DNA from: Planctomycetota bacterium | GTDB taxonomy: Bacteria; Planctomycetota; B15-G4; JADJEK01 | DNA length: 35,035 bases | Direction: 5' to 3' | Assembly (NCBI GenBank): GCA_044225365.1 | Contig: JBGAIQ010000056.1 | Coordinates: 1 to 35,035 of the forward strand | Shown here: positions 12,331 to 35,035 of the stretch, in pieces | Layout: the number at the start of each line of letters is the position of its first letter | How positions within the stretch are numbered: position 1 is the first letter of the stretch | Program-made: the position numbers and the translations under genes | The notes under the pieces: model-generated | Seen by the model: the letters and a program-made list of their open reading frames with translations, nothing else | What the model was told of the DNA's origin: nothing | Databases searched by the model: none

Positions 12331-13815
12331 ATGGTTCGGATTGGAAGCCGTATCGCTTCGCCCTGGATTCGCGTGCTCTGTATCGGAACCGCGTGTTGTG
12401 GAACGACCGCCCTCGCGCAGACCTATCAGCTCCGCGACCTCGATCCTACGAACCAGCTCGCGTCGGGCTTCTGCTCGCGCACCACGATCTCGGGGGTGAC
12501 GATCGGGGGCGGCGCGCCGTATGGGGCGCCATACTCGATGGCGGTGTACTACGACGCTTCGGGCTCGCACGTCCTGCCCGTACTTGCGGGCGACGAGGCG
12601 GGGTTCGGCGCGGACATCAACTCGAGCCTCACGATGGTCGGCAGTTCGACCGATGTCGTCGTCCTCCACCACTTGATCAAGTTCACCGATCACCCCGCGA
12701 TGTGGCAGAACGGGCAGGTGACCGACATCCGGTCGCTCGTGGTGAGCGGGCCGAGTCTCGATCTCATCGATGCCGTCGGCATCAACGACGCCGGCACGAT
12801 CGTCGGTCTCGCGCGCGATCCCGCGACCCAGATCGGGCGGGCCTATCGACTCGAGAACGGCGTGCTGACGGATCTCGGATTCCTCGCGGCGACGCCATCG
12901 CAGGGCTCCACGCCCACTGCGATCGGCATGGATGGAAGCGTCGTCGGTTCGTCGACGGCGAACGGCGGGTTCCATCACGCCGTGCTGTGGCAGAACGGGC
13001 AGATCGTCGACCTGCACGCGCAGGCGCAGATTCCGGGCCGCGTCAGCGAGGCGTTCGACATCAATCGTTTCGGCGTGATCGTCGGCGGCGCGGACTACGT
13101 CGCGGACTTCCAGGACTTCGAGGTCGCGACGGTCTGGGTGAATGGCGTCGCGACGAATCTCGGGACGCTCGGCGGGCCGGGCGCGCCGCCCGTCGTCGAG
13201 TCGTTCGCCCGCGCGATCAACGATCTCGGAGTGATCGTCGGCACCTCGGTGACGCTGAACTACGAAGTCCACGCCTGCATCTGGCGAAACGGCAGCATCG
13301 CGGATCTCAACACGCTGATTCCACCCGGGTCCGGATGGCTCCTCGCGAATGCCTATGACATCGACAACGACGGACGGATCGTCGGTGAGGGTTTCTTCAA
13401 CGGGACGATTCGTCCGTTCGCCCTGAAGCCGGTCTGCAACGGCAAGTTCGAGGTGTACGGAATCGGCTGCGCGGGCGCGACCGAGACGCCCGCGCTCCGA
13501 GGCTACGGTTGCCCGACGCCGAACGAACCCTTCGCGATCGAGATCACGCACGGCGGTGCGAACGCCCAAGGTCTCCTCTTCCTAGGCGGTGGCGCCGGCG
13601 TCGCTCCGATCGTCCCGACGTGCGCCGTGCAGATCCTCCCGCTCCTGCCCCTCACGATCCCGGTCGTGCTCGATCCCGCGGGCGGGCTCTTCTTCGTGAC
13701 CGAGTTGCCCGCGGGCACTCCGTCGTTCGACGTCTGGTTGCAGTCGTTCCTCGCCGACGGCTCGGTGCTTTCCGGGATCCGGGGCACGCAGCCGCTGAAG
13801 CTCCATTTTCAGTGA
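12331..13815 (+). CDS. Secreted HAF-repeat beta-propeller protein with the shared C-terminal domain
   Basis: Start ATG 12331 after GAGGAGG. Signal peptide ends TALA|QT. Repeats such as HHAVLWQNGQIVDL, GINDAGTIVG and NLGTLGG. C-terminal domain at 13435-13815. Confidence 0.85.
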   Translation: MVRIGSRIASPWIRVLCIGTACCGTTALAQTYQLRDLDPTNQLASGFCSRTTISGVTIGGGAPYGAPYSMAVYYDASGSHVLPVLAGDEAGFGADINSSLTMVGSSTDVVVLHHLIKFTDHPAMWQNGQVTDIRSLVVSGPSLDLIDAVGINDAGTIVGLARDPATQIGRAYRLENGVLTDLGFLAATPSQGSTPTAIGMDGSVVGSSTANGGFHHAVLWQNGQIVDLHAQAQIPGRVSEAFDINRFGVIVGGADYVADFQDFEVATVWVNGVATNLGTLGGPGAPPVVESFARAINDLGVIVGTSVTLNYEVHACIWRNGSIADLNTLIPPGSGWLLANAYDIDNDGRIVGEGFFNGTIRPFALKPVCNGKFEVYGIGCAGATETPALRGYGCPTPNEPFAIEITHGGANAQGLLFLGGGAGVAPIVPTCAVQILPLLPLTIPVVLDPAGGLFFVTELPAGTPSFDVWLQSFLADGSVLSGIRGTQPLKLHFQ

Positions 13816-13943
13816 CGCGAGCGTTACGAACGCCCTATCCGACGCGACCGATGATCGGCGAATCGCAAGGGTTGCGATGAACGGAGTGGTACGCCCGTAG
13901 CCGAGCGTACGGCGAAATCAGGAAGAGCGCGTCCACGCGCTCC

Positions 13944-13949
13944 TACGCT
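13944..13949 (+). promoter_or_regulatory. -10 element of a probable leaderless transcript
   Basis: TACGCT-GTTCCC-ATG(13956), with no SD sequence. Confidence 0.45.
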
Positions 13950-13955
13950 GTTCCC

Positions 13956-16900
13956 ATGCTCGACGCGATCCTCCTCACGTTGGCGCTCGTCGCATCGAAC
14001 GCCGATCCCGCGCAATTCCACGACAAGGCTGTCCGCGATCTCATCGCGTTCGACGAGCCAGGCTTCCCGGTCCACGAGGCCGGCATGGCGTCGCCGATCC
14101 CACAGCCGTTGGTAGCGACGAAGGACCGCATCGCGGCGATCCCCGAGGGCGCCAAGATCGCGACGTCGGGAACCGAGTTGAACGACTTGCTCGCGAGGTC
14201 TTCGCACTCGGTGCTGATCTGGCGCCACGGCTCGACGTTCCCCGCCGAATCGTGGACCGCGATCCTCGGATTCCTCGAGCGCGGGGGCTCTTTGCTCTCC
14301 CTCTGCGGCGAGCCCTTCACCCGACCCGTGACGGGCTCCCCCGGAGCGCGCCACATCGGTGAACGCACGCTCGCGCCGTCCCATCAGCTCGGTCTCCTGC
14401 ATCCGCGGCTCGAGAGCGCCGGCGGGTTGACTTGCCTCTACGAGAAGGGCCGCGACCCGGAGCGGGTCCTCGCCCCAAACGATCAGGCGGTCGCGGTCGC
14501 GGTGTTCGAGCCGCGCTTCTCGAACTCGCAGAACGTTCCGAACGAAGAGGGTTCGCCCGGTCCGCGCGAAGCGTCGCTCCAGCGACTCGCGTTGCTGACC
14601 CACGGAGGCCTCCGCGATGGCGGGCCGCCTCTCTACGCGGGCGCCGTGGCGATCGATCGACTTCGTGGGCGGTTCGCGGGCGGACGTTGGGTGTTCCGTC
14701 TCCTCACGAGCGTTCCGACGCAGGATGAGACGACGCGTCTCGTCCGCGAGGCGTTGCGCGAGCCCGCCGAGATCGCCGTGACTCCGACGCTCGCCTGTTA
14801 TCACGAAGGCGAGGATCCCACGCTGCGACTCGTCCCCGTCGCGCCGTCCCGCGCGGCGCAATGGACGGTGCATCTCACGCTGATGGGCCCTGACGGCGGC
14901 GAACTCACGCAACTCGATGCAATGATCGAGACGACGCACGGCGAGTCGTTCGTGCAACTGCCCGCATGCAAGTCGAAGGGCTTGTATCGGGTGCGAGTCG
15001 AGTGCGACGCGATCGCGCCGTTCGAGACGGGATTCGAGGTCTTCGACCCCGATCTGCTGCGAACGCCGTCCGCCGTCGAGTTCCGAGGCGATCAGCTCTA
15101 TCGCGACGGCAAGCTCGTGCCGCTCATCGGCACGACTTCGATGTCGCCCGACGTGCATCGCGAGTTCCTGTTCGAGCCCAACCCGGTGCTGTGGAATCAG
15201 CGATTCGCGACTTTTGCGGCGATGAAGTTCAACGTCGTTCGCACGGGACTGTGGAGCGGTTGGAAGCGCGCGGCTCCCGCGGAGGGCGAAGCCACCGAAG
15301 CGTTCTTGCGATCCATCGAAGCCTACGCGCTCGCGGCAAGGCGACACGGCATCCTCGTCGTCTTCAACTGTTTCGCCTTCCTGCCCGAGACCTGGGGCGG
15401 TTCCCATCCCTATCTCGATTCGAAAGCGGTCGCCGCCCAGCTGCGATTCGTGAAAGCGATCGCGAGCCGCGTCGCGACCGACCGCGAGTGGTTGTTCGAC
15501 CTCGTCAACGAGCCCTCGTTCGCGCCGCCCGCGCAGATGTGGAGCTGCAGGCCGACGTACGGCGAGATCGAGGAGAGCGCATTCCTTTCCTGGTTGAAGC
15601 AACGCTACGGCGGAGATTCGTTCGAAGCCGTCGTGCGCGAGCGCTGGCACCTCGCCCCCGACGAGAAGATCGGCCTGCCGACTCCCGCCGACTTCGAGAG
15701 CCCGCAGGTCTTCGCGGATCGGCGACCGCAGCGCGCGAGCGACTTCCTCCACTTCGCGCAGGATGCGTTCGCGAGTTGGGCGAAGTCGATGAGCGCCGCG
15801 ATCCGCTCGGTCGCTCCCGATGCTTTGATCACGGTCGGGCAGGACGAAGGCGGCGTGCTCGAGCGTCCATCGCCCCTCGTCCACGCTCCGGTCGTCGATT
15901 TCACTTCGATGCACTCGTGGTGGTGGAACGATGCGCTGCTGCTCGACAGCCTCGCGGCGAAGGCGCCGGGCAAGCCTCTTCTCGTGTCCGAGACCGGTCT
16001 CCAGCCGCGTGAAGTGTTCACCGGGGAGAGCCAGCGCGATCCCTATGCCGGCGGCCTCCTGCTCTCGCGCAAGCTCGCCTCCGCCTTCGCGGGCCGCGCC
16101 TGCGGTGTCATTCAATGGTGCTACGACGCGAATCCGTACATGAACTCGGATGCCGAAGCCCTGATCGGCCTCGTGCGCGCCGATGGAAGCGCGTCGTGGG
16201 AGCTCGCCGCGATGCGCGGCTTCTCCGAATTCCTCGCGCGCAACGCCGCGCGACTCGAATACGCGGGACGGCCCGACGTCGCGTTCGTGCTGCCGCAGTC
16301 CGATCTCACGGGCCCGCGTCCGATGCCGATCGCGAGCATCGCGCATTGCCTCGAACGATTGACCTACGGTCTCGGGCTCACCGTCCAGGTCTACTCCGAA
16401 TGGAACCTACGCGGCCTCTCCGATCACGACGTGATCGTGATCCCCGCGGCGCGCGGCTACGACCAGTGCGTCTTCGACGAAGTGGAAATCGCGCTGCATC
16501 GCGGCGCGACGGTCCTGATGTCGGGATGGCCGTACGCACGCGACCGCTTCGCTCATCACGGCGTGCCGATGAGCGGGCCGCAACGACTCGCGCGACGCCA
16601 AACCACCACGATCGGCGACACGACGCTCGACGTCGAATTCCCTCTCGCGATCCAAGAGTCGGCGGCGGCATCGAGCTTCGCGTCCGGGATGGCGAGCTTC
16701 CCGGTCGACAAGGGCCGCGTCATCGCGTCGGCGTTGCCTCTCGAATGGTCGCTCGATCCCAATGTCGTCGAGACCTTCTATCGTGCGGCGCTGAAGGACC
16801 GAATGCAGTCCGCGCTCTCGAAGCCTGCCTCGCGCATCTTCATGACTCGGATCCCCCTGAAGGACGGAACCCTCGTCGTCGCGATCAACGAGACGGATCG

Positions 16901-17758: not shown

Positions 17759-17762
17759 CCGG

Positions 17763-19208
17763 TCACGGAACCTTCTGGATGAAGTACTCCATGATCGATG
17801 CGCGCAGATCGTTGGGAGCCTGCTGACTCGGGATCTGCAGTTCGCCGACCGGGATGCCGTTGATCGGACCGCCGGGATTCGTGTAGCGCAGGATCTTCGG
17901 ATTTCCGGCCGTGATCACGGTGCTGCTCTGGAAGGTCACGAGCACGCGGTCACCCGCCTTCGCGATCCCGTTCTGCGCCGTGAGATCGAACTGCACGGTG
18001 TTCGCGCCGGCCTGGAACCCAGCCGTGTTGCCGAGGCCCCACCCGCCGTTCATCACCGCGAAGGTGAACCCGAGACCGGGCGAGATCGCGTCGACATGCA
18101 GTCCGAACGTCGTATTGCCGTCGCCCTTCAGCACGGGGAACGGGCCGATCCACGACTCGGCGAAGCCACCTTGACCGTCGGGGTACGCGCAGTGGAGCGA
18201 CACCGCGAGCGTGCCTTCGAAATCGGCCCACGGCAGCGGCGCGAAGTGACGCCGACAGAACGCGAGGTAGACCGGGTCGTCGACGCCGACGCCATCGAGA
18301 GCCCCCGTCGTCGCCGCGACCGCGCCGATGTCGCCGCCGACCGAGGGCGGAAGGTTCTGGATGTCGATGCGGGACGTGCCATCGGGCGCCTTGCGCAAGA
18401 GGCCCATCTGGAAGCCGACGGGTCCGCTGCGCTGGATCGGGAACGCCGAGACGATCGTCGCTCCATCCTGTGCGTTGATCGTGGTGTCGGAGAGCACGAG
18501 CGTCGCGATCGCGATCTGGACGAGCGGCGGCTTGTACACGAACACGCCGTCCTGCCCGCCCGCTTGATGTTTGAGGGCGACGATCTCTTCCTTGCCGTCC
18601 GAATCGTAGTCGAGCGAGAACAGCGCGTAGTTGTCCTCGGTCGCCGTGGCAAACGCCCAATCCGACGAGATCGCCTGCCCAAGGCCCTTGTTCAGACCCT
18701 TCGGCATCTTGAAGATCTCGAGCCGCTCTTGCGTCGCACCCGATCCGCGAACGACGGCGATCTCGTCCTTCTTGTCGCCATCGAGATCGATCGCCCCGAT
18801 CGCCTTCAACGGCAGGCTTCCGCCCATCGCGAGCGCACCCTTCTTGTAGGAGAAGAGCGGTTGGCCGAGGTCACCGTTCAGTATCGTCGGCGCCTTGTAG
18901 ACCTTGAGATCGACCGGGCGATTCGCCTCGGTCGCGTACTCGGTCACCACCACGATCTCGTCGATTCCGTCGCCCGTCGCATCCGCCCCGAACACGTAGC
19001 GGACGATCTTCTTCCCCGTGCTCTTGCCGATCTTGATGTCCCCGGCCGACTGCGTCCCGATCACTCCAAGCCCGCCGTTGGCCTGGGAATAGATTTCGAG
19101 GCCGACCGGAACGCCCTTGCCGAGGGGGTCGAGTCGCAGGAGCCCGTACTCGTCGATCTGACCGAGGAGCGAACAGGCGATCGTCGTGGCTGCGAGAGTG
19201 AGGAACAC
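17763..19208 (-). CDS. Secreted protein with divergent FG-GAP-like Ca-binding repeats and an unknown C-terminal beta-rich domain
   Basis: GTG 19208 after GGAG. Signal peptide MFLTLAATTIACSLLG|Q. Repeats DATGDGIDEIVV, DLDGDKKDEIAV and DYDSDGKEEIVA. Confidence 0.75.
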   Translation of the reverse strand: MFLTLAATTIACSLLGQIDEYGLLRLDPLGKGVPVGLEIYSQANGGLGVIGTQSAGDIKIGKSTGKKIVRYVFGADATGDGIDEIVVVTEYATEANRPVDLKVYKAPTILNGDLGQPLFSYKKGALAMGGSLPLKAIGAIDLDGDKKDEIAVVRGSGATQERLEIFKMPKGLNKGLGQAISSDWAFATATEDNYALFSLDYDSDGKEEIVALKHQAGGQDGVFVYKPPLVQIAIATLVLSDTTINAQDGATIVSAFPIQRSGPVGFQMGLLRKAPDGTSRIDIQNLPPSVGGDIGAVAATTGALDGVGVDDPVYLAFCRRHFAPLPWADFEGTLAVSLHCAYPDGQGGFAESWIGPFPVLKGDGNTTFGLHVDAISPGLGFTFAVMNGGWGLGNTAGFQAGANTVQFDLTAQNGIAKAGDRVLVTFQSSTVITAGNPKILRYTNPGGPINGIPVGELQIPSQQAPNDLRASIMEYFIQKVP

Positions 19209-19387
19209 GGGGTCGACTCCAGGTGCACACGAATCGGAGGCGGAGGATTTCGCAACGATCTCGAAATCCAGCATATCGCGTTCCGCCGCGCGCGGCCGCC
19301 GTTTGCCGCCGTTTGGAATTGGCGCATTGTAGCCCGTGGCCGAGCCGGGGTGACAACGCGGCCGGGCACGGACGCTCGACCACCAAG

Positions 19388-21586: not shown

Positions 21587-21845
21587 TGGGGGCTCGGAAT
21601 CGTTCGCGGAAGTCGCCGCAGCCTAGCAGCCCGTCGCGATCGACTGCGCGATGGAGCTCTGAAGATGAAACATTGGCAAGAATTCCCGCGCGAACGAGAC
21701 AAGCGATTAGTTTCTCCGATTCGGCCAAGAGGAGCGTCGGCGAGGAGTTCCGACGATGGCCGTGTGTCGCGCGGGGGCTACCTCGTTGCCGCCCCGCACG
21801 GCCTTTGCGATTCGATTCAGCTCTCTGCAGGAGCCCGCGAAGAGC

Positions 21846-23510
21846 GTGGCAGAAACGACGAACGATTCGGCCCCGTCGAAGCTCGAGATACCGATCCTCG
21901 TGATCGCGTTGTCTCTCGCTTTCGCTGCGCTGCTCTACAACATCGTGTCGGAGCCACTCGACCACGGGTACACCCGCTACGGCTCGATCGCCTGGCACAT
22001 GGTGGCGACGGGAGACTACGTCGTCCCGCGCCTCGGCGATCAGATCTACATCCTGAAGCCGCCATTGCAGAGCTGGATGATCGCGCTCGGGATCGAGCTC
22101 GTGGGCGCTGTCCCGAATTGGGTGACCCACATCCCGAATCTGCTCGGCGCCACGGCGAGCATCGCGGCCACGTGGTTCCTCGCGCGGCGCCTCCTGAACA
22201 GCGCACGCGGTGCGACCCTCGCCGCGCTCGTCCTCGCTTCGTTCAGCACGTTCGTCGAACACTCGCGCGGCGAGCGCGTCGATCCGCTGTTCGCCGATTC
22301 CCTCGTCACGGCGATCACGTTCTTCCACGCCGCGATGCTCGACGACGGCAAGCGCGTCGGCCGCGAACTCGCGGCGATGTGGCTCTCCCTCGTCGTCGCG
22401 CTCCTCACCAAGGGGCCGTTCGGGATCATCTTCTTCCTCGCGGTCACCCTGCCGTACGCGATCTCGATCGGTAAGGCGAAGCTGTTCCTGTCGCGGACGA
22501 GCGTGATGTTTGCGCTCGTCGCCTTCGCGATCACGGCGATCTGGCCGTGCCTCCTGATCCACCGCCTAGGTTGGGACGAGGTCGTTCGCGTCTTCCAGAT
22601 GTCGGAGTTCACGAAGCAGGCGGGAGGGCCGCTCTTCTACCTCAGCGCGATTCCGCTCTCGATCGTGCCGTGGGCGATCTTCCTGCCCGCTCTCGCGTTC
22701 TTCCTCGGCCGGGCGAAGCCGTGGAGCGATTCGTTGAGCCTGCGATTGCCGTGCATCTGGATCGGCATCTTCGTCGTCGCGCTGCATCTCTCGATGACGC
22801 GTCACGAGCGTTACCTGCTGCCCATCCTCGCGCCCCTGGCGATCCTCCTCGCGGCGATGGCGATCCACTCCGATCCACTCGTGCAGCGAGTCACCCGCTG
22901 GACCGGGATCGTCGGTGCGGTCGGCATCGCGGCCATCGCGGGTGGAGTGCGCATCGTCCCTCCGCAAGTATTCGACGTGCCCGCAGAGTTCTCGACTCGC
23001 TCGGTCGTCGTCCTCTTCTTCGCCGCCGCCGCGCTCTACGAGTTCTTGCGTCAGCGGCCCGTGATCCACGGAACGCTCCGGCTCGGCCTCGCCTGCCTGC
23101 TGATGTTCGCGCTGCGCGACGTCTACGACGCGAAGAAGATGATGAAGATGGACGGCCGCAAGGAGGCGATCGCCGAACTCCTTCCGACCCTTCGAGAGCA
23201 CACCGTTTACTCGCACGTCAGCGTCGACTACGAGAAGCTCGGCATGATCGAGATGATCGTGCGGCACGAGCTGCCGCGGCTACCGCGAGCGTCTCCGAGC
23301 GCGCTCGCGATCTCCGAGGTGATCGACGCGGAATCCGGCCAGTCGCTGCGGCCCAAGGGCCTCGCTCCCGGCGACGCGTTCTACGTGCTCGCGTCCCCCA
23401 CCGCGTTCGGGATTCCTGCGGACCTGCAGGGGCTCGGCGAAACAGAGGTCGTCGCCAAACTCGAACTCGACGAAACGAAGTTCGTGCTCGTGCGCTGCCG
23501 GACGTCCTAG
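21846..23510 (+). CDS. ArnT-like GT-C glycosyltransferase
   Basis: RY...M..TGDYVVPRL...KPPL..W, LLTKGP, PLFYL, PW, RYLLP. Multi-TM. Start uncertain (GTG 21846 with upstream AGGAG, or ATG 21756). Confidence 0.8.
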   Translation: MAETTNDSAPSKLEIPILVIALSLAFAALLYNIVSEPLDHGYTRYGSIAWHMVATGDYVVPRLGDQIYILKPPLQSWMIALGIELVGAVPNWVTHIPNLLGATASIAATWFLARRLLNSARGATLAALVLASFSTFVEHSRGERVDPLFADSLVTAITFFHAAMLDDGKRVGRELAAMWLSLVVALLTKGPFGIIFFLAVTLPYAISIGKAKLFLSRTSVMFALVAFAITAIWPCLLIHRLGWDEVVRVFQMSEFTKQAGGPLFYLSAIPLSIVPWAIFLPALAFFLGRAKPWSDSLSLRLPCIWIGIFVVALHLSMTRHERYLLPILAPLAILLAAMAIHSDPLVQRVTRWTGIVGAVGIAAIAGGVRIVPPQVFDVPAEFSTRSVVVLFFAAAALYEFLRQRPVIHGTLRLGLACLLMFALRDVYDAKKMMKMDGRKEAIAELLPTLREHTVYSHVSVDYEKLGMIEMIVRHELPRLPRASPSALAISEVIDAESGQSLRPKGLAPGDAFYVLASPTAFGIPADLQGLGETEVVAKLELDETKFVLVRCRTS

Positions 23511-23638
23511 CGAACGGACGTCGAGCGTTTCCTTCCGCGCGATCCTCTTGGTGTAGGATGCTCGAGTTCGACGCAATCCTCGGCTGGCGCCCGATGGATT
23601 CGGAAAAGGGTACGACGAACTCTCGAGAAGGACGAACC

Positions 23639-26143
23639 ATGAAGGCACTCATCTTCGCGTTGGCTCTCGGAGTCGCGCCCAGCGTCTTCGCGCAAACCTG
23701 CTTGCCCTTCATCGGCAGGCAATACGACGCCGGGGACAATCCCAAGTCCGTGGCGATCGCTGACCTGAATGGGGACGGCGCCGCCGACCTCGCGGTCGCG
23801 GACTATTCGGTCGACGGAATCTCGGTGCTCTACGGAACCGGAGCCGGGCGCTTTGCCGCGCCGATGAAGATCGCGATCGGAGCGAAGCCCGCTTCCATCG
23901 CATGCGCGGATTTCAACGGTGACGGACGCCCCGATATCGTGACTGCGAATCCGGACAGCGCGAACGTGTCCGTCCTGATCTCGAAAGGGAACGCGTTCTT
24001 TCCGCCCACCACTTTCGCAACGGGCCTCAGTCCGCAGTTTGTCGCGGTCGGTGATCTCAACGTCGACGGCAAACTCGACCTCGCGGTCATGACCTACTTC
24101 AACGGGGTCTCCGTCCTCCTCGGAAACGGAACCGGAGGATTCAAGAAGCGAAAGCAGTACGGCGGCGGCGCAGGAGGACTTGGCGTCGCGATCGGAGATC
24201 TGAATGCGGACGGGCTCCCGGATCTGGCTTTGGCGAGCGAGCTAGGCGACGTGTCGATCTTGCTCGGCCTCGGACTCGGTGCGTTCGCAGGACCCAAGAG
24301 TGTGTATGCCGGATACGGTCCGTTCTCGATCGCGATCGCGGACTTGACCGGAGATGGAAAGCCGGACCTGGCTGTCGGCAATAGCGGCGCGAAAAAGGTC
24401 TCGTTCCTCGTCGGCAATGGAGCTGGCGGCTTCGGCCCGCCGACCACTTTGATCGTCGGATTGAGTCCCGCCTCGGTTGCGATCGATGACCTCAACGGCG
24501 ACGGCAAACTCGACATCGCGACGGGAAACAACTGGGACTACGACGTCTCCATCCTCTTCGGCGACGGACTCGGGACATTCTCCGAGGCGAAGTCCATCGC
24601 GGCCGGATCCGACATCCGTTCGATCCAGATCGGCGACCTCGATGGAGACGAGCATCCCGACCTCGTCGTCGTCAATGACTCCTCGGACACGGCTTCCGTT
24701 CTATTGAGCGATGGAAGCGGAGGCTTCATCGAGCCCCCCAGCCTCGGCTTCGGGCCGCGGGCGATCGTGCCCACGGACATCGACGACGACGGAATACTCG
24801 ATCTCGTGATGCCGTTGAACTATCCGCACTTCCTCGCGACGGTGTTGGGCGATGGGAAGGGCGGGTTCTCCGCGGCTGTGTACTTCGACGGCGATTTCAC
24901 TTTCTACTCGCGAGACCTCGCGGTCGGGGACCTCAACAAGGATGGGAAGAAAGATGTCGTCGTCGCGAGTTACACGCCTTCCAAGGTGACTGCGGCGCTG
25001 GGAGACGGCCATGGCGGATTCGTCGCGGGAGCTTCGATCGCCCTCGTCGATGGAGCGACCGCGGTCGCGATCGCAGACTTCGATGGGAATGGACACTCGG
25101 ACCTCGCGATCTCGTCGGGGAAGTTCGTTTCCATCGCCCTCGGCGATGGCCAGGGCGGATTCTCCGCGCTCGTCGATCACGCGTTGGTATCCAATACCAA
25201 CGACATCGTGATCGGGGACTTCGATCACGATGGCAAGCAGGATCTCGCGGTCGCGAACGAGTCGTACGACCACGTGATCTCGATCCTGCTCGGGTATGGT
25301 TCCGGCGGATTCTCGGCGCCGAAGAACTTCGATGTAGGGGACTTTCCTGTCTCGATCGCGATGGTCGATTTCGATGGGAACGGCAATCTCGATCTCGCCG
25401 TCGCCAATCGCATCTCGAACAACGTCTCTGTGCTCTTCGGAGACGGGCATGGCGCGTTCTCCCCGCCCTCGAACTACGGCGTCGGCGAGTCCCCCGTCTC
25501 CATCGCCGCTCCCGACGTGAACGGCGACGGGAAACCGGATCTCGTCGTTGCGAATCAGTACCCGAGCAATCTCTCGCTCCTCCTGAACACGGGGAACGGA
25601 CAATTCGGTTCGGTCGTGAACTACCTCGGCGGCATGGGTCCGCAGGCCATGACGGTCGGCGACTTCAACAAAGACGAACTGCCCGACCTCGCCGTGTCGG
25701 ACGGTTACACGAAGCCGGCTCTTCGAATCCTGCTACACCAGTGCTCGTCGCGCCCTGTCGTCCCTTTTGGTGCGGGTTGCGCGGGCTCGAGTGGGTTCGT
25801 GCCGTCGCTGGGGACGAGTTGCTGTCCAGGCCCGGGTCAAACCGTGATCGTCACTCTCGAGCATGGCCTCGGCGGGGCGAACGCGGTTCTCCTCGTCGGC
25901 CTGAATCCAGCCGCGATCGTGCTCCCAGGACCCGGCTCGTGCTCTCTTCTCGTCGATCCCGTTCTTCCGTTGATCGTCTCGCTTCCTCTCGACGGGAACG
26001 GCCCGGGAAACGGCACCTTCCGGATCGAAGCGTCGATTCCTCCGGGCGTCTTCGTCGACGCCCTGACGATTCAGGCATTCGTCGACGATCCCGGAGTGCC
26101 GCAGGGTTTCGCGAGCACGAACGGCCTCGAACTGAAGATGTAA
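23639..26143 (+). CDS. Secreted FG-GAP/VCBS-repeat protein (14 repeats, likely two 7-bladed propellers) with the shared C-terminal domain
   Basis: ATG 23639 after GAAGGA. Signal peptide MKALIFALALGVAPSVFA|QT. 14 D-x-[ND]-x-D-G-x-x-D-type repeats counted. C-terminal domain at 25742-26143. Confidence 0.9.
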   Translation: MKALIFALALGVAPSVFAQTCLPFIGRQYDAGDNPKSVAIADLNGDGAADLAVADYSVDGISVLYGTGAGRFAAPMKIAIGAKPASIACADFNGDGRPDIVTANPDSANVSVLISKGNAFFPPTTFATGLSPQFVAVGDLNVDGKLDLAVMTYFNGVSVLLGNGTGGFKKRKQYGGGAGGLGVAIGDLNADGLPDLALASELGDVSILLGLGLGAFAGPKSVYAGYGPFSIAIADLTGDGKPDLAVGNSGAKKVSFLVGNGAGGFGPPTTLIVGLSPASVAIDDLNGDGKLDIATGNNWDYDVSILFGDGLGTFSEAKSIAAGSDIRSIQIGDLDGDEHPDLVVVNDSSDTASVLLSDGSGGFIEPPSLGFGPRAIVPTDIDDDGILDLVMPLNYPHFLATVLGDGKGGFSAAVYFDGDFTFYSRDLAVGDLNKDGKKDVVVASYTPSKVTAALGDGHGGFVAGASIALVDGATAVAIADFDGNGHSDLAISSGKFVSIALGDGQGGFSALVDHALVSNTNDIVIGDFDHDGKQDLAVANESYDHVISILLGYGSGGFSAPKNFDVGDFPVSIAMVDFDGNGNLDLAVANRISNNVSVLFGDGHGAFSPPSNYGVGESPVSIAAPDVNGDGKPDLVVANQYPSNLSLLLNTGNGQFGSVVNYLGGMGPQAMTVGDFNKDELPDLAVSDGYTKPALRILLHQCSSRPVVPFGAGCAGSSGFVPSLGTSCCPGPGQTVIVTLEHGLGGANAVLLVGLNPAAIVLPGPGSCSLLVDPVLPLIVSLPLDGNGPGNGTFRIEASIPPGVFVDALTIQAFVDDPGVPQGFASTNGLELKM

Positions 26144-26341
26144 CGCAAGCGCGATTCCGAAGAGCTTGGTCAGCAGCCCGTTGAACAACTCGGCCGGCAT
26201 TCGCCCGGCTGCGAAGCGCCAGGACATCGTCGGACATCGTCGCCATATCGTTCCTGAGCCAGTGATCTTCATTTCTCACGCGATCGTCGTACGATCGAGG
26301 CTCGTTCGGCGCCGGACAATTCTCCAACGGGTTCGGGTTCG

Positions 26342-29300
26342 ATGCGCTCCAGCACACCCTCGAAGATCCACGGAATCGTTCTCGTCGGGGTCATCGCCCA
26401 CACGGGGCTCGCCGCTGACGCCACGGTCGACTTCAATCGCGACGTGCGACCGATCCTCGCGCAACACTGCTTTCCCTGCCATGGGCCCGATGAGGGCAAG
26501 CGGCGCGGCGGACTGCGACTCGATCTCGAGCAGAGCGCAGGCATGGAGCTGAAGAGCGGCCATCGCGCGATCGTGCAGAAGGACGTCTCCGCGAGCGAAC
26601 TCGTGAAGCGCATTCGCGCCGCAGACGCGGATGAGCGCATGCCGCCCGCCGAGGCGAAGAAGCCGCTCGCAGAAAGCGACATCGCGACGCTCGTGCGCTG
26701 GATCGAAGCGGGTGGGCGCTACGACGAGCATTGGGCGTTCAAGGAGCTTCCCGCCGAGGTGCCGATCCCGGAGGTCGCGAATTCGAACGGCAGCGAGAAT
26801 CCGATCGATCGCTTCGTCGTCGCTCACCTGCAGCACGAAGGAATGAAGCCGTCCCCGGAGGCCTCGCGCGAGACTCTGCTGCGACGCGTCAGCCTCGATC
26901 TCGATGGGATCCCGCCGACGCCGGAGGAGGTCGCGGCGTTTCGCGGCGACGCGAGCGAGAACGCCTACGAGAAGGTCGTCGATCGCCTGCTCGCGAGTCC
27001 GCGCTTCGGCGAGAAGCTGGCGCAGGGCTGGCTCGACGTCGCGCGCTACGCCGACTCCTACGGTTATCAGTCCGATCAGTTGTCGAGCTTCTGGCCGTGG
27101 CGCGACTTCGTGGTGCGTTCGTTCAACGAGAACCTGCCCTACGACCAGTTCCTGACCTGGCAGCTCGCGGGCGATCTCCTTCCCTCGCCGACGCGCGACC
27201 AACGACTCGCGACCGCGTTCTCGCGACTGCATCGCATGACGAACGAGGGCGGCACGATCCACGAGGAGTTCCGCGTCGAGGGCGTCGTCGATCGCGTCAA
27301 TACGTTCGGAACGGCGTTCCTCGGGCTCACGATCGAGTGCGCGCGCTGCCACGATCACAAGTTCGACCCGATCACGACGCAGGACTACTACGGCCTCTTC
27401 GCACAGTTCCAGAACATCGAGGAGGAGGGCACGTACCTCGACTCCGGGATCATCCCGACGCCATCGCTCCTCCTGCCGACGCCCGAGCAGGAAGCGCAGA
27501 GGAACGCCGCAATGGCGAAGGTCGCGACGGCCCGCGCCGCGCTCGACGAAGCGATGCGGTCGAGCCGACCGACGCTCTCCGACTGGATCCAGAGTCGCCC
27601 GGGCGATGCGAAGATCGAGGATCGCGGATGCGTGGCGCGCGTCGACTTCGAGTCGATCGACAACGGAGTCGCAGCGAGTTCGCCCGCGACGCTCGCCGGC
27701 ATGAACCTCGGCGGCAGCAAGGTCGTGGACGGCGCCGACGCGTTCCGCGGCAAGGCCCTCCTGCTCAACGGCGAGGACGGTGCGAGTTTCGATCCTTCGA
27801 AGCTCGCGCCCGAGATCGGCGAAGTCTTCGTGCCGTTCACGCTCGGTTTCGAATTGAAGATCCCGGCGTCGCTTGGCGATTCTTCGCGCGTCATCGTCTG
27901 CCGCTCGGGCGGAACCGATGTCGGCTACCACGGCTTCGATCTCATGCTCGATGACGGCGCCGTCGCGGCGCGGATCTATCGCCACTGGCCGGGAAACGCG
28001 ATCGCCGTGAAGACGAAAGCGCGACTGCCCCGCGACCGCTTCGTCCACCTCGCGTGCAGCTTCGACGGCATGGGTTCCGCCGCGGGCTTCGCGATCTACT
28101 TCGATGGCGAGCGCATGCCCGTCGACGTGATCCACGACAAGGCCTGGAAGACGACCGAACCCGGCAACGGCTGGAGCGGCGGAGTGGCCTTCGGCGCGCG
28201 CTTCCGCGATCGCGGACTCGCCGGTGCGGTGATCGACGACGTCGTCGCCTACGACCGCGCGCTCGCCCCGATCGAGGTGAAGAACCTCGTCGATCCGACC
28301 GCGATCGAGAAGGCGCTTCACGCGCCGCTGCAGGACGCGATGGAGCTGCGGGGCTACTTCACCGCCGTCGTCTCCGAGCCGATCCGCACCGCTGCGGCGA
28401 ACGTGCGCAGCGCGTTGAAGGAACAGGTCGCGATCGAGAATGGCATCCAGGAGATCGCCGTCATGGAGGAGAGCGCGACGAAGCCCGCGTTCGTCCTCTC
28501 GCGCGGACGCTACGACCAGAAGGACGCCGCGCGTCCCGTGGCCGCCGCGGCGCCCGCGCATCTCGGACTGCCCAGCGCGCTCGAACCGAAGAACCGACTC
28601 GGGCTCGCGAAATGGCTCTGCGCTCCGAATCACCCGCTCACGGCCCGCGTCGCGGTGAATCGGCTTTGGGCCCAGTGCTTCGGCAAGGGGCTCGTTCCGA
28701 CGCTCGAGAACTTCGGAATGCAGGGCGAGATGCCGGCCCATCCCGAATTGCTCGACTGGCTCGCGCGGGATTTCGTCCGCCATGGCTACGACGTGAAGCA
28801 CGTCTTGAAGACGATCGTGATGAGCCGGACCTATCGCCAGTCCTCGGCGCGAAGTCCGAACGATCGCGACCCGGAGAATCGGCTGTTCGCGCGCGGGCCG
28901 AGCAAGCGCCTGCCGGGCGAAGCCCTTCGCGACAGCGCGCTGTACGCGGCGGGTCTCCTCCACGAGCGACTCGGAGGACCGCCGGTTTCGCCGTACCAAC
29001 CCGCGAACTTCTGGACCGAATCCAATTCGATGAGTCCGGGTTACTCGGAGAGCGTCGCACCCGACGTGTGGCGACGCAGTCTCTACACGGTGTGGAAGCG
29101 CACTTCGCCGATGCCGAACATGACGCTGTTCGACGCGCCGAGCCGCGAGGTCTGCGTCGCGCGCCGCTCGTCGACGAACACGCCGCTCCAAGCGCTCGTT
29201 CTCCTCAACGACGTGCAGTTCGTCGAGGCCTGCCGGGTGCTCGCGGAGAAGGCGATGAAGGCGTCGGACGCGACGCCTGCGCGAATCGCGGACTGCTTCG

Positions 29301-29524
29301 TGCGACTGTGTGCGCGAGCGCCGGATGCGGACGAGCTCGCGACCCTCGAGGATCTCGTCGCCCGGCAGTACGAGTTCTTCGCCGCGGACCTGCCCGCTGC
29401 GAAGTCCTTCCTCTCCATCGGCAAGGCGGCGCGCGACGAGTCGCTCGATCCCGCGCTGCACGCGGCGTTCACCGCGGCGGCGCAAGCGATCATGAATTCC
29501 GACCTCTTCATCACGGAACGCTGA
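26342..29524 (+). CDS. Planctomycete cytochrome c + DUF1549 + LamG-like + DUF1553 (PSD1) protein
   Basis: Signal peptide. [79 protein letters not shown]. Two CxxCH motifs. Confidence 0.93.
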
Positions 29525-29532
29525 GACACACG

Positions 29533-30987
29533 ATGAACGATCCTCGCAACGAATCGATCGCGTCGCGTTGGACTCACCTCGCGCGCCGTGAGCTGCTCGC
29601 CGCGAGCGGAGTGTCTCTCGCCTCGCTCGCGCTGAACGGATTGTTCGCGCGCGACGTTCTCGCGAGGCCCGCGCGAGGGACGGGAGGGAGTCTCCCTGCC
29701 CCCCATTTCCCGCCGCGCGCTCGACGAGTGATCTACCTGTTCCAGTCCGGCGGTCCGGCGCAGCAGGATCTGTTCGATCCGAAGCCGCTGCTCGTCGAGA
29801 AGAACGGTCAGCCCCTGCCCGACAGCGTGCGTCAGGGCCAGCGCCTCACCGGCATGTCCGCTTTCCAGGCCGCGCTCCCGCTCGCGGGCAGCGTCTTCCG
29901 CTTCGAGAAGGCGGGCCAATGCGGAATGGAGCTCTCCGAGCTCCTGCCCTATCACGCGAAGATCGCGGACAAGATCTCGCTCATTCGCTCGATGCACACC
30001 GAGGCGATCAATCACGACCCCGCGATCACAATGCTGCAGACCGGCGCGATGCTCGCAGGTCGCCCGTCGTTCGGTTCGTGGGCCTCGTACGGCCTCGGGT
30101 CCATGAACGACGATCTGCCGACGTTCGTCGTCCTCGTCACTCCGAACAAGGGCGATCAGCCGCTGTACGCCCGCTTATGGGGCAGCGGGTTCCTGCCGAG
30201 CGAGCACCAAGGAGTGCAGCTGCGGCCGAACGGCGTCCTCTTCCTCGACGACCCCGCGGGCATCAGCCGCAAGAGCCGGCGCTCGCTGCTCGATGCGATC
30301 GCGAACCTCGACCGAAGGGAGGAGAAGGCTGAACTCGATCCCGAGGTCGGCGCGCGGATCGAGCAGTACGAGATGGCGTTCCGGATGCAGACGAGCGTTC
30401 CGGAGGCGATGGACCTGAAGGGTGAGCCCGAGTCCACGTTCGCACTCTACGGCGAAGACGCGAAGAAGCCGGGCACGTTCGCGGCGAACTGCGTGCTCGC
30501 GCGGCGCCTCGCCGAGCGCGGCGTGCGTTTCATCCAGCTCTATCACCAGGGCTGGGATCAACACGACGGCCTGCCCGGCGCGATCCGCAATCAGACGCGC
30601 GAGACGGATCAACCCGCCGCCGCGCTCATCACGGATCTCGAACGTCGCGGGATGCTCGACGACACGCTCGTGATCTTCGGCGGCGAGTTCGGTCGCACGA
30701 GCTATTGCCAGGGTCGACTCTCCCCCGGCAACTACGGTCGCGATCATCATCCCCGCTGTTTCTCGATCTGGCTCGCGGGCGGCGGAGTGAAGCAAGGCCA
30801 CGTCCACGGCGAGACCGACGAGTACGGCTACAACATCGTCCGCGACCCCGTCCATGTCCACGACCTGCAGGCCACGGTGCTGCACCTCCTCGGCGTCGAC
30901 CACGAGCGACTGACGTATCGCTATCAGGGTCGCGATTATCGGCTCACCGACGTCGAAGGCTCGATCGTGCACGACGTGATCTCCTGA
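29533..30987 (+). CDS. DUF1501 (sulfatase-like) protein with a Tat-type signal
   Basis: ATG 29533. ARRELL twin-arginine motif, VIYLFQSGGP.Q.DLFDPKP, ARRLAERGVRF, WDQH, GEFGRT, GRDHHP, HVHDLQAT. Confidence 0.93.
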   Translation: MNDPRNESIASRWTHLARRELLAASGVSLASLALNGLFARDVLARPARGTGGSLPAPHFPPRARRVIYLFQSGGPAQQDLFDPKPLLVEKNGQPLPDSVRQGQRLTGMSAFQAALPLAGSVFRFEKAGQCGMELSELLPYHAKIADKISLIRSMHTEAINHDPAITMLQTGAMLAGRPSFGSWASYGLGSMNDDLPTFVVLVTPNKGDQPLYARLWGSGFLPSEHQGVQLRPNGVLFLDDPAGISRKSRRSLLDAIANLDRREEKAELDPEVGARIEQYEMAFRMQTSVPEAMDLKGEPESTFALYGEDAKKPGTFAANCVLARRLAERGVRFIQLYHQGWDQHDGLPGAIRNQTRETDQPAAALITDLERRGMLDDTLVIFGGEFGRTSYCQGRLSPGNYGRDHHPRCFSIWLAGGGVKQGHVHGETDEYGYNIVRDPVHVHDLQATVLHLLGVDHERLTYRYQGRDYRLTDVEGSIVHDVIS

Positions 30988-30991
30988 CGGA

Positions 30992-31012
30992 CCGGATTCC
31001 GTCGGAATCCGG
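30992..31012. terminator. Perfect hairpin between convergent genes, possible terminator
   Basis: CCGGATTCC-GTC-GGAATCCGG, 4 nt after the DUF1501 stop. No U-tract on either side. Confidence 0.4.
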
Positions 31013-31045
31013 CTCGACGGGAGATCGCGTGGTTCTCGCGGCCGA

Positions 31046-31180
31046 TCACTCGCCGTCGAGGAGAAGCATGACGATGAGAATGAGCAGGAGCAGACCGCCG
31101 AATCCTCCGAACACTACGCTCTTGGCGAGCGCGCTCACGATGAGAAGGATCAGCACGAGGGCGAAGAATCCGGTAATCAT
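31046..31180 (-). CDS. 44-aa two-helix membrane microprotein
   Basis: Hand translation: MITGFFALVLILLIVSALAKSVVFGGFGGLLLLILIVMLLLDGE*. GAAAGG upstream, GC-rich third positions. Below the track's length cutoff. Confidence 0.7.
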   Translation of the reverse strand: MITGFFALVLILLIVSALAKSVVFGGFGGLLLLILIVMLLLDGE

Positions 31181-31220
31181 GGGGCACGGGGCCTTTCTGT
31201 GGAGAAGATGAACTGCGCGG

Positions 31221-32177: not shown

Positions 32178-32323
32178 GGAGGACTCCTGGATTTCTTGGT
32201 TCTTGGAACGAGAGCGTGAACGTCGCTTGGAGTCGTTTCCGCCCGCACCGAGAACGCGCGATCGCGTCGTCATCGTCGTGCACGTCGGAGTCCAATCGCC
32301 GAATTCTCTCTGGGTTTGTCATG

Positions 32324-32339
32324 CGCAAGACCCATGCCG
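32324..32339 (-). promoter_or_regulatory. Sigma54 (RpoN) -24/-12 promoter
   Basis: Minus strand CGGCATGGGTCTTGCG: GG-N10-GC with GGCA and TTGC cores, intergenic and oriented toward the 32177 gene. Confidence 0.65.
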
Positions 32340-32655
32340 CGAGATCGACGCTCTCGAATCCCCGTTCCACGGCCCAACGCAACGACGACGGCACTCGTTG
32401 GGGCCATCCCGCAGCGTGTGAAGGGTGAAGTCGGCGCGAGATGCGCTTTCCATCCCTCGGTCTTTGTAGAAACGGCCAGCGCCGAATCGTCCCGCTCACG
32501 AGCTGCGCCGCGAGACGAACGGCTCGCAGGTCGGTGCGGAGTCGACCCTCCGCATTTCGGACTGCCGCGCGCGCCGCTCCCATCGCGGTCTGCAACGTGC
32601 TTCGCAAGGACGACGGACTCGAACCATCCGGCCATCCCTCACCCAAGGAGTTCCC

Positions 32656-33144
32656 ATGACCTCTGCCTCGAGATTGCTCGTGCTCGAAACGACCCGAAGC
32701 GCTCTCGTTGCGCAGACCGTGACGGGGATGCTCAACGCCGAGTGCGTCGCCGCCGTCGTTCAAGACTGTGAGGAGAACGATCCGCTCTCCTGGACGCAGC
32801 GCGCGATGGGCACGCGAGGGTGCACCATCCTCGTTCCGAGCGATCAACTCGATCGCGCGAAGCGCATGCTGGACGACTGGAAACGATGCGGTGCGCTCGA
32901 AGCAGCGGCGGTGCGACGCCCGCGCGGGTCGCGCTCTGCGCGCAAACCGTCCGCCCTGCGAACGACTCGCGGGGCCGCACCGAAGAAGAAGACGCGAAAG
33001 GCCGCCGCGACGAAACGCGATGGCGGTGCGAAGAGCGTCAAGAGCCCGACGCGGGCACGGAAAGTCCTATCGAAGGACAAGCCGACCGCGAGCGGTCCGG
33101 GGTCGCGATCGAACCAGAGCCGGGGAAGTAAGAAAGTCCGCTGA
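32656..33144 (+). CDS. DUF2007-like domain fused to a Lys/Arg/Ala-rich histone-H1-like tail
   Basis: AAGGAG SD. N-terminal ALVAQTVTGMLNAECV...ILVPSDQLDRAKRML resembles DUF2007. The last ~75 aa are basic and low-complexity. Confidence 0.6.
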   Translation: MTSASRLLVLETTRSALVAQTVTGMLNAECVAAVVQDCEENDPLSWTQRAMGTRGCTILVPSDQLDRAKRMLDDWKRCGALEAAAVRRPRGSRSARKPSALRTTRGAAPKKKTRKAAATKRDGGAKSVKSPTRARKVLSKDKPTASGPGSRSNQSRGSKKVR

Positions 33145-33292
33145 CCTCGCCCGCCGTATCGGTTCGCACGCTTCTAGGAAGCACCGACTTCGATGTAGAC
33201 TCACTTCCCGCCGCGGATGGTTCGTCCGCTTCTGCTTCCATCTTCCATCGCGCTTGCGGCGAGGTCGTTCGTTCACTCGAGGAGGTTTCGGC

Positions 33293-34360
33293 ATGCGTCT
33301 GCGCTCGTTCGCCCCGTTCGTCGTGATTTCGCTCCTGTATCTGCTCAGCGCGAGTGCATCCGCGCAGACCTGCCCGGGCGCGGCGGATCAGTTCTGGAAG
33401 AACGACAACCTGCCGCAGAATCCGTCCGGCGCGACCGCCGTCGCCGTCGTGCCCGGCCTCTGTCCCGGCGAGGCTTCGGGATCGGTCTTCAACCTCACGA
33501 CGGGCCAGGCGCCGCAGCACGTGAAGCAAGTCTCGGTCGGATTCGGCGCGCAAGGCGGCGTCGGCGGCAAGACTGCTCAGGTGAACATCGAGATCTACGA
33601 CGGCGTCACCTGGAACGGCACCAAACCGGTGCTCGGTCCCAAGGTGTTCGACTACAACGTGGCGAACGGATCGAACGTGACGGTGCAGAGTCACGGCATC
33701 AACGTGTTCGACATCTCGAGCAACAACGTGCTGGTCGGGCAGGGCACGACGGCCTTCGCGGTCGTCTTCCGCATGGTCTCGAACACCAACGGAAGCTGCG
33801 CCGCCGGATACACCGCGAACTTCTTCACCGACGCGACGTCGACGTTCAGCTGCTCCGCGAAACCGAAGGCGAACCTCATGTTCATCCTCGGGCAAGGATT
33901 CGTCGACCCGAGCAACGCCACGGTGAGCGGCTTCCCGCTCTGCCCGCTCTTCTACAACGGCAACTTCGCGATCCGAGCGTGCACCGAGGCCGCGATCTGT
34001 CAGGTCGACAAGGGCTTCGCCGGACCGGGCGACGCGCGCATCAGCATGTGCGGCGGAGATCTCAGCGCCGGCACGTCGGCTCAGTTCAAGCTGGTGAAAG
34101 CGAACGCCAACGTCGTCGGTCTCGCGTTCGTCTCGGTCGCGTTCAACCCGACGTTCGCGGGAGTGATCGGCGGAACGATTTGCCCGGTTCCCGCGCTCAC
34201 GGTCATCGCGCTGCCGACCAATGCGAGCGGTGAGATCCTCGTGCCCGTGCCCGGCGGCGGCGGGCCCGCGTTCTTCTTCGTCCAGATGGTGACGCCGAAC
34301 GCCGCGATGCCGAAGGGTTACGAGGTCACGAACTGCTTGCAGGTCGTGCTGCTCGCCTGA
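33293..34360 (+). CDS. Secreted Cys-containing beta-rich protein with a variant of the shared C-terminal domain
   Basis: ATG 33293 after GGAGG. Signal peptide ends ASASA|QT. Strong codon bias. C-terminal domain at about 33998-34360. Confidence 0.88.
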   Translation: MRLRSFAPFVVISLLYLLSASASAQTCPGAADQFWKNDNLPQNPSGATAVAVVPGLCPGEASGSVFNLTTGQAPQHVKQVSVGFGAQGGVGGKTAQVNIEIYDGVTWNGTKPVLGPKVFDYNVANGSNVTVQSHGINVFDISSNNVLVGQGTTAFAVVFRMVSNTNGSCAAGYTANFFTDATSTFSCSAKPKANLMFILGQGFVDPSNATVSGFPLCPLFYNGNFAIRACTEAAICQVDKGFAGPGDARISMCGGDLSAGTSAQFKLVKANANVVGLAFVSVAFNPTFAGVIGGTICPVPALTVIALPTNASGEILVPVPGGGGPAFFFVQMVTPNAAMPKGYEVTNCLQVVLLA

Positions 34361-34362
34361 CC

Positions 34363-35035
34363 TCAGGCCTCGGTCAGTCGAAGAATGAACGCCTGCGCCC
34401 GGATCGTGAATCCGCCGGGGAGCGGAGGCAATGTCGCGTTGACGGTCACGGATGCACCGCCGACCGAACCATTGTTGGTCTTCAACGGCAAGGTCACGGG
34501 CAGCAGTTGACTCAGGTAGAGATGACAGCCGTTGGGAAGGACCGCGTTCGCCGCGCCGGCGCCGAACAACATCACGACCGGTGCGTTGCCGATGCAGTTG
34601 TCGATCTTCAACAGAACGTGTCCACCGGTAGCGAAGCACCCGGTGATGTCCAAGGTCGGCACGAAGTTCAGCGAGCCCTTGCATCCCGCCCCCACGTTCG
34701 CCGACGTACCGCAAGCACCTTTGTAGACGCGTACGTACTCCGGCAAACGCTGATCGCTCGTCGAGTGCATCCCGACCGCGAAGTCGGACGCTCCCTGGGA
34801 ATCAATGTCACCCGGGATCGCGACGGAGATGCCGAAATGATCGAGGGCGTGCGCGCCTTCCACCTGGTAGAGCTTTGCGAACGATGCTCCGGAGAACAAC
34901 GTCGCGGTACCGGCCGCCACGACGCCCCCGTGGATGTCTTCGTTGGGCGCGCCGACGACGAGATCGGGAATTCCGTCTCCACTCAGATCCTCGCCGCTCG
35001 CGACCGCGAAACCGAATTGCGATCCTGGGACGTCC
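34363..35035 (-). CDS. Integrin-alpha-type FG-GAP protein, 5' end outside the window, with a truncated shared C-terminal domain
   Basis: Frame is open to the right edge: SQFGFAVASGEDLSGDGIPDLVVGAP, HFGISVAIPGDID. C-terminal domain at 34363-34713. Confidence 0.85.
   Translation of the reverse strand, partial: DVPGSQFGFAVASGEDLSGDGIPDLVVGAPNEDIHGGVVAAGTATLFSGASFAKLYQVEGAHALDHFGISVAIPGDIDSQGASDFAVGMHSTSDQRLPEYVRVYKGACGTSANVGAGCKGSLNFVPTLDITGCFATGGHVLLKIDNCIGNAPVVMLFGAGAANAVLPNGCHLYLSQLLPVTLPLKTNNGSVGGASVTVNATLPPLPGGFTIRAQAFILRLTEA

Follow-up and report, generated by a model that had tools for sequence, protein, structure and literature searches.

A C-terminal β-sandwich domain family on secreted proteins of Planctomycetota, and its candidate role in sorting or surface anchoring

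The type A C-terminal domain (CTD) of Bacteroidota's type IX secretion system (T9SS) is a folded, all-β module at the extreme C-terminus of Sec-exported proteins, where it follows many unrelated passengers and occurs in many copies per genome. PEP-CTERM (TIGR02595) tags secreted proteins of environmental bacteria strictly at the C-terminus, through a motif of about 24 residues that has a transmembrane helix and a basic tail. In the integrin alpha thigh, galactose oxidase domain 3, sialidase and GH32, a β-sandwich directly follows a propeller; each of these sandwiches is specific to one propeller family, and they are not confined to the chain end. To our knowledge, the placement of proteins on the unusual cell envelope of Planctomycetota is poorly understood. 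Here we describe a domain of about 125–133 amino acids (aa) that closes four proteins with different passengers in a 35,035-nucleotide (nt) stretch of DNA from a Planctomycetota bacterium (GenBank assembly GCA_044225365.1, contig JBGAIQ010000056.1, positions 1 to 35,035; hereafter the window). We call the tails copies A to D and the proteins carriers A to D: a HAF-repeat β-propeller protein (A), a 14-repeat FG-GAP protein (B), a protein starting at position 33293 (C), and an integrin-alpha-like FG-GAP protein (D).

A sequence-only reading of the window had proposed that the four C-termini align with one another, and it had placed the tails at coordinates that are exact (Table 1); each tail extends to the stop codon. 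For three of the four, the alignment is direct. BLASTP gave an E-value of 9.4e-13 for copies A and B (33 per cent over 125 aa), 7.2e-14 for B and D (34 per cent over 107 aa), and 2.9e-5 for A and D, with the three alignments spanning 106–125 residues. By these comparisons A, B, and D are clearly homologous, and we refer to them as the canonical copies. A hidden Markov model (HMM) built from the three matches those three alone in a six-frame translation of the window.

Copy C is more distant. Its pairwise BLASTP comparisons with the other three tails were not significant (E 1.6, 0.022, and 3.7), it scored E 5 against the HMM of A, B, and D, and a family HMM of 157 sequences found it at just E 0.45, through one 7.9-bit stretch that takes in the final 54 positions of the profile and keeps register with the C-terminus. 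The relatives of carrier C close this gap. Among its 130 database homologues at E ≤ 1e-3, 77 of the 119 listed match the family HMM at i-E < 0.1 (best 2.4e-20), and near orthologues score about 1e-6 to 1e-7. When the family alignment was compared by hhalign with carrier C plus 15 orthologues, the probability was 94.2 per cent (E 1.2e-7) over 113 columns, which make up the whole domain; reciprocally, an HMM of the C-type tail matches copy A at E 0.0034. Because these intermediates link it to the others, copy C is, by profile comparison, a divergent family member, established solely via its relatives. The proposal of four alignable C-termini therefore stands directly for A, B, and D and at one remove for C.

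The family is large and its members sit at the chain end. A profile of three sequences found 1901 representatives of 50 per cent identity clusters at E ≤ 1e-3, of which 733 remained at E ≤ 1e-10. Position was scored on the 150 listed representatives plus four more (n = 154). Zero, one, or two residues separate the domain envelope from the end of the chain in 89, 57, and 7 cases (153/154), and the sole exception ends 16 residues short of it; none of the matches examined was internal. The same holds in unannotated genome DNA. Scanning species-representative genomes with a DNA pattern from a 7-row alignment gave 58 loci in 25 genomes, and a six-frame search of these loci found 85 domain copies. 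All 82 copies with a complete profile end finish zero or one residue before a stop codon (82/82); the remaining three are either partial or truncated at a contig end.

The domain family occurs largely within Planctomycetota. Of the 25 genomes, 23 bear a Planctomycetota or Phycisphaer-type label, and the two exceptions are one unclassified 'bacterium' and one 2.8-kb contig binned as Chloroflexota (Candidatus Aquidulcis). This contig is the sole match labelled with another phylum; it is likely mis-binned, since it is short and its assembly series is shared with a Planctomycetota metagenome-assembled genome that has nine copies. Single genomes hold at least 17, at least 10, at least 9, and at least 8 copies, all of them lower bounds because a single restrictive DNA pattern was used, and 17 of the 58 loci contain two or more carrier genes. 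These counts are in line with the lineage expansion that had been suggested from the window. A hydrophobic segment lies within the first 60 residues of 113 of 126 apparently complete carriers, and the remaining 13 look like truncated gene calls. In the window itself, the N-termini of carriers A, B, and C, for which Sec signals had been predicted, are signal-peptide-like as judged by eye.

The passengers in front of the domain are diverse, as the different carriers in the window had implied. With the domain removed, 129 passengers of at least 150 aa were sorted by single-linkage BLAST into 39 unrelated groups (sizes 49, 22, 11, three of 3, five of 2, and 28 singletons), and one representative of each was searched against Pfam. 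Eleven of the 39 are propeller types: FG-GAP, HAF/DUF3466, PQQ_2, WD40, Rax2/DUF5122, SBBP (twice), PD40, LDL-receptor class B, Kelch, and lactonase. Seven are of other types, namely Beta_helix with Chlam_PMP, F5_F8_type_C, GHL10 with Golvesin_C, Cytochrome_C7 with Big_9/cadherin, GBD_T9SS_assoc, DUF4082, and DUF2510. The other 21 representatives matched no Pfam family. Within the window the domain is selective, as had been noted before: the secreted Kelch, GH5-like, and FG-GAP-like (17763–19274, −) proteins lack it by the three-sequence, family, and C-type HMMs.

The passenger of carrier C (33293–33997, +) is a Cys-rich region, about 210 aa long, that matches neither Pfam nor NCBIfam. Among the 119 listed homologues it pairs with either the divergent or the canonical tail, and 26 listed proteins of other lengths, including two FG-GAP proteins, have the C-type tail as well. 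A relative of carrier C is also present in the cultured Engelhardtia mirabilis. By these matches the passenger is a second undescribed domain family.

HAF propellers provide the most direct comparison with known sorting signals. When the HAF passenger alone was used as the query, 25 of the 120 homologues listed bear the domain. Many of the others stop right after the last propeller strand, and some continue at the same junction with a known sorting signal. We chose 14 such candidates by eye from their tails and precomputed Pfam labels. TIGR02595 (PEP-CTERM) was found at cut-off in seven of nine, and TIGR04183 (T9SS type A) at cut-off in two of five and below it in the other three. Judged from these sequences, HAF homologues show a choice-of-anchor pattern in which the domain, PEP-CTERM, or a T9SS domain occupies the equivalent position; the term follows the NCBI naming of surface-protein domains (PMC11878542).

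Some HAF-propeller homologues (P0180, P0194, P0195, P0201) carry PF00413, a matrixin-type peptidase domain, by precomputed labels, and these four lack the C-terminal domain.

The tail is confidently predicted to be a β-sandwich. The AlphaFold2 model of copy B (24-row alignment) is all-β with nine strands, at a mean pLDDT of 94.3 and a pTM of 0.87. Several Gly and Pro residues are near-invariant in the 157 aligned copies, Gln111 is present in all 157, and Asp116 in 154. The cysteines come and go in pairs: Cys13 and Cys67 occur together in 153 copies and are jointly missing from 3, and for Cys1 and Cys28 the corresponding counts are 112 and 13. This covariation fits two disulfides (Cys13–Cys67 and Cys1–Cys28) and an extracytoplasmic location. 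The sandwich had been proposed earlier as disulfide-bonded, and the model supports its fold; the bonds are what the cysteine pattern would predict. Both motifs picked out in the window, Cys/Gly at the N-terminal end and Q...G...T-N at the chain end, belong to the consensus of the family.

Individual copies in the window vary on this plan. Copies A and B have both cysteine pairs and the Q-x4-D ... T/S-N terminal motif. In copy C the terminal motif and the first pair are retained; it has no YGxGC-type N-terminal motif and no second pair, the 13–67 pair not being conserved in its subtype. Copy D keeps the four cysteines and the Gln and stops directly after the strand with the invariant Gln (34366–34420, −), leaving a 14-residue gap where 154 of 157 relatives keep a D-P...G...T-N-G hairpin. 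None of the shifted reading frames at the end of copy D encodes the missing hairpin, and its nearest relative (P0011) is 66 per cent identical. All four tails end in a β-strand two to four residues before the stop, with no hydrophobic helix and no Arg/Lys cluster.

Searches for a named family gave no match. Pfam and NCBIfam found nothing over the tails of the four window proteins at E ≤ 1, and Pfam found nothing over the domain in 24 domain-centred sequences at E ≤ 10. Across 90 full-length carriers, no family is common to more than 22. A search for a PDB sequence relative with a three-copy profile returned a chance-level match alone (mesothelin, E 1.7). None of the 30 nearest clusters in the ESM Atlas is named; they share no Pfam 38.1 family, and their commonest phylum is Planctomycetota. 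The titles and opening abstract lines returned by a literature search contained no description of the domain. By these sequence and profile searches the domain is an undescribed family, consistent with the earlier statement that no named family could be recognised.

The nearest named ESM Atlas clusters are Planctomycetota proteins of 276 aa with CHRD (0.83) and of 355 aa with Spond_N (0.75). Such lengths would leave room for a single CHRD or Spond_N domain followed by the tail described here, and these proteins may represent further passengers; the scores serve as leads only.

Known C-terminal modules were compared individually. The T9SS sorting domain (TIGR04183/PF18962) had no match at E ≤ 1 in the window proteins or at E ≤ 10 in the 24 sequences, and the same library did find TIGR04183 in two HAF homologues (P0228 and P0256) that served as positive control. 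For remote T9SS kinship, hhalign of the 157-sequence family against a shallow alignment of five T9SS tails gave 1.6 per cent (local) and 0.04 per cent (global), and no T9SS cargo tail is among the Foldseek PDB matches listed. PEP-CTERM was rejected because there was no TIGR02595 match and the tails have neither the helix nor the basic cluster, and dockerins because there was no Pfam match at E ≤ 10 and the model is all-β; both results agree with the expectation of a tail with no transmembrane-plus-basic end and no dockerin. For carbohydrate-binding modules and lectins there was no Pfam CBM match, and the glycan-related sandwiches among Foldseek results (3wnl, 3uam, 5ftz, 2r5o) matched weakly (E 5e-3 to 9e-3, TMq 0.30–0.44).

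Structure comparison revealed no close solved fold. A Foldseek search of the PDB with the copy B model returned nothing at E ≤ 1e-3. The top matches, Spo0M, MD-2, NPC2, GM2 activator, and Ig or FnIII domains (TMq 0.27–0.51), are generic sandwiches. MD-2, NPC2, GM2 activator, and Spo0M (ML/Ig-like) resemble the domain in being disulfide-bonded secreted sandwiches of similar size; they differ in that E is 2e-3 or worse, TMq 0.35–0.47, and the root mean square deviation 5–12 Å, and there is no Pfam ML match. For MD-2 and NPC2 in particular the matches are weak (TMq 0.41–0.47, E about 3e-3).

Set beside the systems described at the outset, the domain is like the T9SS type A CTD in being a folded all-β module at the extreme C-terminus of Sec-type carriers, in its many unrelated passengers and copies per genome, and in its junction on homologous HAF propellers. 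It differs in having no sequence or profile similarity, a larger size, two putative disulfides, no linker, and Planctomycetota carriers. With PEP-CTERM it shares the strictly C-terminal position on secreted proteins and, on HAF passengers, the place straight after the last propeller strand, whereas the domain here is a soluble, folded unit of about 130 aa. The propeller-following sandwiches are alike in the direct succession of propeller and sandwich; the Planctomycetota domain has at least 39 passenger groups, including non-propellers, and there is no sequence match. We would place the domain, as a new family, among C-terminal sorting or anchoring modules of the kind already known.

Table 1. 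Features of the window. Positions count from its first nucleotide.
Feature	Positions	Strand	Length (aa)	Remarks
Polysaccharide-type gene set	1..8293			Polysacc_synt flippase-like, T2SS G-type pseudopilin-like, Kelch, 840-aa Wzy_C (O-antigen ligase-like), SGNH/AlgX-like
C-terminal part of ORF ending at 8296	8296..9110	−	~270	presumed FdhD-like
Molybdopterin oxidoreductase	9114..11360	−		adjoins the preceding ORF
Carrier A, HAF-repeat β-propeller protein	12331..13815	+	494	TIGR02913 HAF_rpt 3.6e-29; signal-peptide-like N-terminus; start codon set from database form P0159
Signal peptide region, carrier A	12331..12430	+		closes with A-Q-T
Copy A of the C-terminal domain	13435..13812	+	126	canonical; family HMM 6.6e-31
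Membrane-protein gene	21756..23510			overlaps the next row in another frame
Over-extension of the listed carrier B ORF	22547..23638	+		1092 nt; Arg-rich
Carrier B, FG-GAP repeat protein	23639..26143	+	834	FG-GAP_3 1.4e-106, 13 stretches; signal-peptide-like N-terminus
Signal peptide region, carrier B	23639..23700	+		closes with A-Q-T
Copy B of the C-terminal domain	25742..26140	+	133	canonical; family HMM 3.1e-45; sequence used for modelling
PSCyt1-PSCyt2-Laminin_G_3-PSD1 protein, then DUF1501 protein	26342..30987	+		
Carrier C (33293 protein)	33293..34360	+	355	signal-peptide-like N-terminus; Cys-rich passenger; no Pfam or NCBIfam family
Signal peptide region, carrier C	33293..33375	+		closes with A-Q-T
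Copy C of the C-terminal domain	33998..34357	+	120	divergent subtype
Carrier D, integrin-alpha-like FG-GAP protein	34363..35034	−		FG-GAP 6e-9; N-terminus beyond window end
Copy D of the C-terminal domain	34366..34713	−	116	canonical, lacks terminal hairpin; starts at 34713; family HMM 3.6e-31, profile positions 1–112

The window has a GC content of 62–68 per cent and contains planctomycete hallmark genes (PSCyt1/PSCyt2/PSD1 and DUF1501), arranged as a gene pair that is common in Planctomycetota (Table 1). The listed ORF of carrier B begins too early, at 22547, by an in-frame extension of high GC content that overlaps a real membrane-protein gene in another frame. All three visible signal peptides close with A-Q-T, and in two of them Cys comes next; this Gln and this Cys are invariant in 16 orthologues of carrier C. 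This ending may reflect a shared cleavage context or an N-terminal pyroglutamate. Upstream of the carriers lies a polysaccharide-type gene set, which does not recur beside the domain in the other genomes (58 loci). The minus-strand ORF ending at 8296 has a C-terminal part that may be related to the formate dehydrogenase accessory protein FdhD, and it adjoins a molybdopterin oxidoreductase gene.

What the domain does is approached here by analogy. We tentatively favour, somewhat short of an even chance, a targeting or anchoring domain that a shared partner in the envelope reads as a folded unit and that is more likely retained than cleaved. A carrier would be exported by Sec, and its tail would fold in the periplasm into a nine-stranded β-sandwich locked by two disulfides. 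One partner common to the carriers, be it a component of the envelope or a device for export or attachment, would then recognise the folded module, and this recognition would take otherwise unrelated binding proteins, mostly β-propellers, to the cell surface or hold them there. A role in localisation is suggested by the terminal position, the Sec-type carriers, the unrelated passengers, the number of copies per genome, the near restriction to one phylum, the selectivity within the window, and the exchange with PEP-CTERM and T9SS signals. The analogy with surface sorting is strengthened by the homologous HAF propellers that bear one or other of these at the junction. Retention, with the tail serving the mature protein as anchor or adaptor, is favoured because there is no linker and the modelled position against the passenger seems fixed. 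In the AlphaFold2 model of the full-length HAF protein, pLDDT is 91.9 and pTM 0.88 over 494 residues, disordered signal peptide included, from which we infer that the tail is placed confidently against the propeller.

Several observations weigh against this reading. No Pro-, Thr-, or Gly-rich linker separates passenger and domain, and in the model the domain seems docked rigidly on the HAF propeller, an arrangement that would also be in keeping with a partner domain whose role is purely structural or ligand-binding. Most of the passengers that could be identified are propellers. The domain tends to track its passenger on the tree (13 label changes among the three large passenger groups, against a shuffled mean of 30 and a minimum of 2), which suggests that the fusions are old and not freely shuffled; the tree is poorly resolved (14 of 129 branches starred) and cannot date or count them. 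Carrier signal peptides were assigned by a hydrophobicity rule and not by a trained predictor. Pfam, NCBIfam, and hhalign detected no kinship to any known sorting domain. Lastly, every six-frame ORF of 120 aa or more in the 58 loci and the window was clustered, and within 10 kb of the domain no non-carrier family occurs in more than 4 of the 58 loci, one cluster excepted. That cluster (45 ORFs in 36 loci) is taken to be a shadow frame because its representative, the sole one checked, lies antisense over a domain copy. Together the missing linker, the high full-length pTM, and the lack of recurring neighbours or machinery keep an accessory role alive.

In such a role, which we consider rather unlikely, the domain would be a structural cap or a second ligand-binding module beside the propeller, with no part in localisation. 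Precedents are the integrin alpha thigh behind its propeller, galactose oxidase domain 3, and the C-terminal sandwich of GH32. The direct junction and the pTM of the whole HAF protein both suit it, and so do the results of a Foldseek search with the full-length model: at E 8e-7 to 3e-5 it returned proteins that join a propeller to a sandwich (Micromonospora sialidase, integrin alpha headpieces, BT4663, galactose oxidase), although the TM-scores to these two-domain structures were just 0.27–0.41. Propellers are the commonest passengers (among the 90 full-length carriers, FG-GAP in 22, FG-GAP_2 in 13, DUF4394 in 10, and HAF in 8), and the polar Gln and Asp, both invariant, would be in keeping with a site for a ligand or metal. 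An accessory domain is harder to reconcile with at least seven non-propeller passenger types and propellers of many unrelated superfamilies sharing it, with its fixture to the last residue of the chain in all cases seen, which is not normal for such domains, and with related HAF propellers that lack it or have a sorting signal instead. We think it unlikely, too, that the domain is a cleaved signal, a tag for an undescribed outer-membrane translocon or sortase-like system of Planctomycetota that is removed or exchanged for an anchor after transport. The evidence from position, cargo, modularity, and choice of anchor serves this explanation equally; the tail is a folded β-sandwich like the T9SS domains, and one passenger bears Pfam GBD_T9SS_assoc. 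Yet no linker or recognisable cleavage motif precedes the domain, its docking on the passenger appears rigid in the model, there is no similarity to T9SS domains, and its 125–133 aa and nine strands compare with a TIGR04183 model of 72 positions. No conserved peptidase or translocon was found within 10 kb at the 58 loci. The T9SS translocon and sortase go by the names SprA/Sov, PorV, and PorU, and no T9SS-type part recurs over the same distance, in a survey that included no search aimed at T9SS genes. An oligomerisation module that links carriers into dimers or surface arrays seems to us very improbable: it has the general plausibility of any terminal β-sandwich and the clustering of carrier genes (two or more copies in 17 of 58 loci) in its favour, but the conserved glycine-rich loops and polar Gln and Asp would be unlike a typical hydrophobic dimer face. 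A two-copy complex prediction scored 0.00, which is no verdict and counts neither for nor against.

The domain marks a defined set of Sec-exported proteins and is positioned like the PEP-CTERM and T9SS signals on their relatives in other phyla. Its profile is a catalogue of likely surface proteins in these genomes, and the marked carriers are probably ligand-binding because they are mostly of propeller type. Were the domain a mere accessory sandwich, it would still be a sizeable new family fit for Pfam or NCBIfam. A bolder proposal, of which we are doubtful, sees in it a folded, disulfide-locked C-terminal signal that tags cargo for an undescribed envelope sorting pathway in Planctomycetota, with an outer-membrane translocon or an attachment enzyme dedicated to reading it. 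If that were true, the pathway would be the Planctomycetota counterpart of T9SS in Bacteroidota and of exosortase in many other Gram-negative bacteria, and the approximately 2000 cluster representatives would define its secretome.

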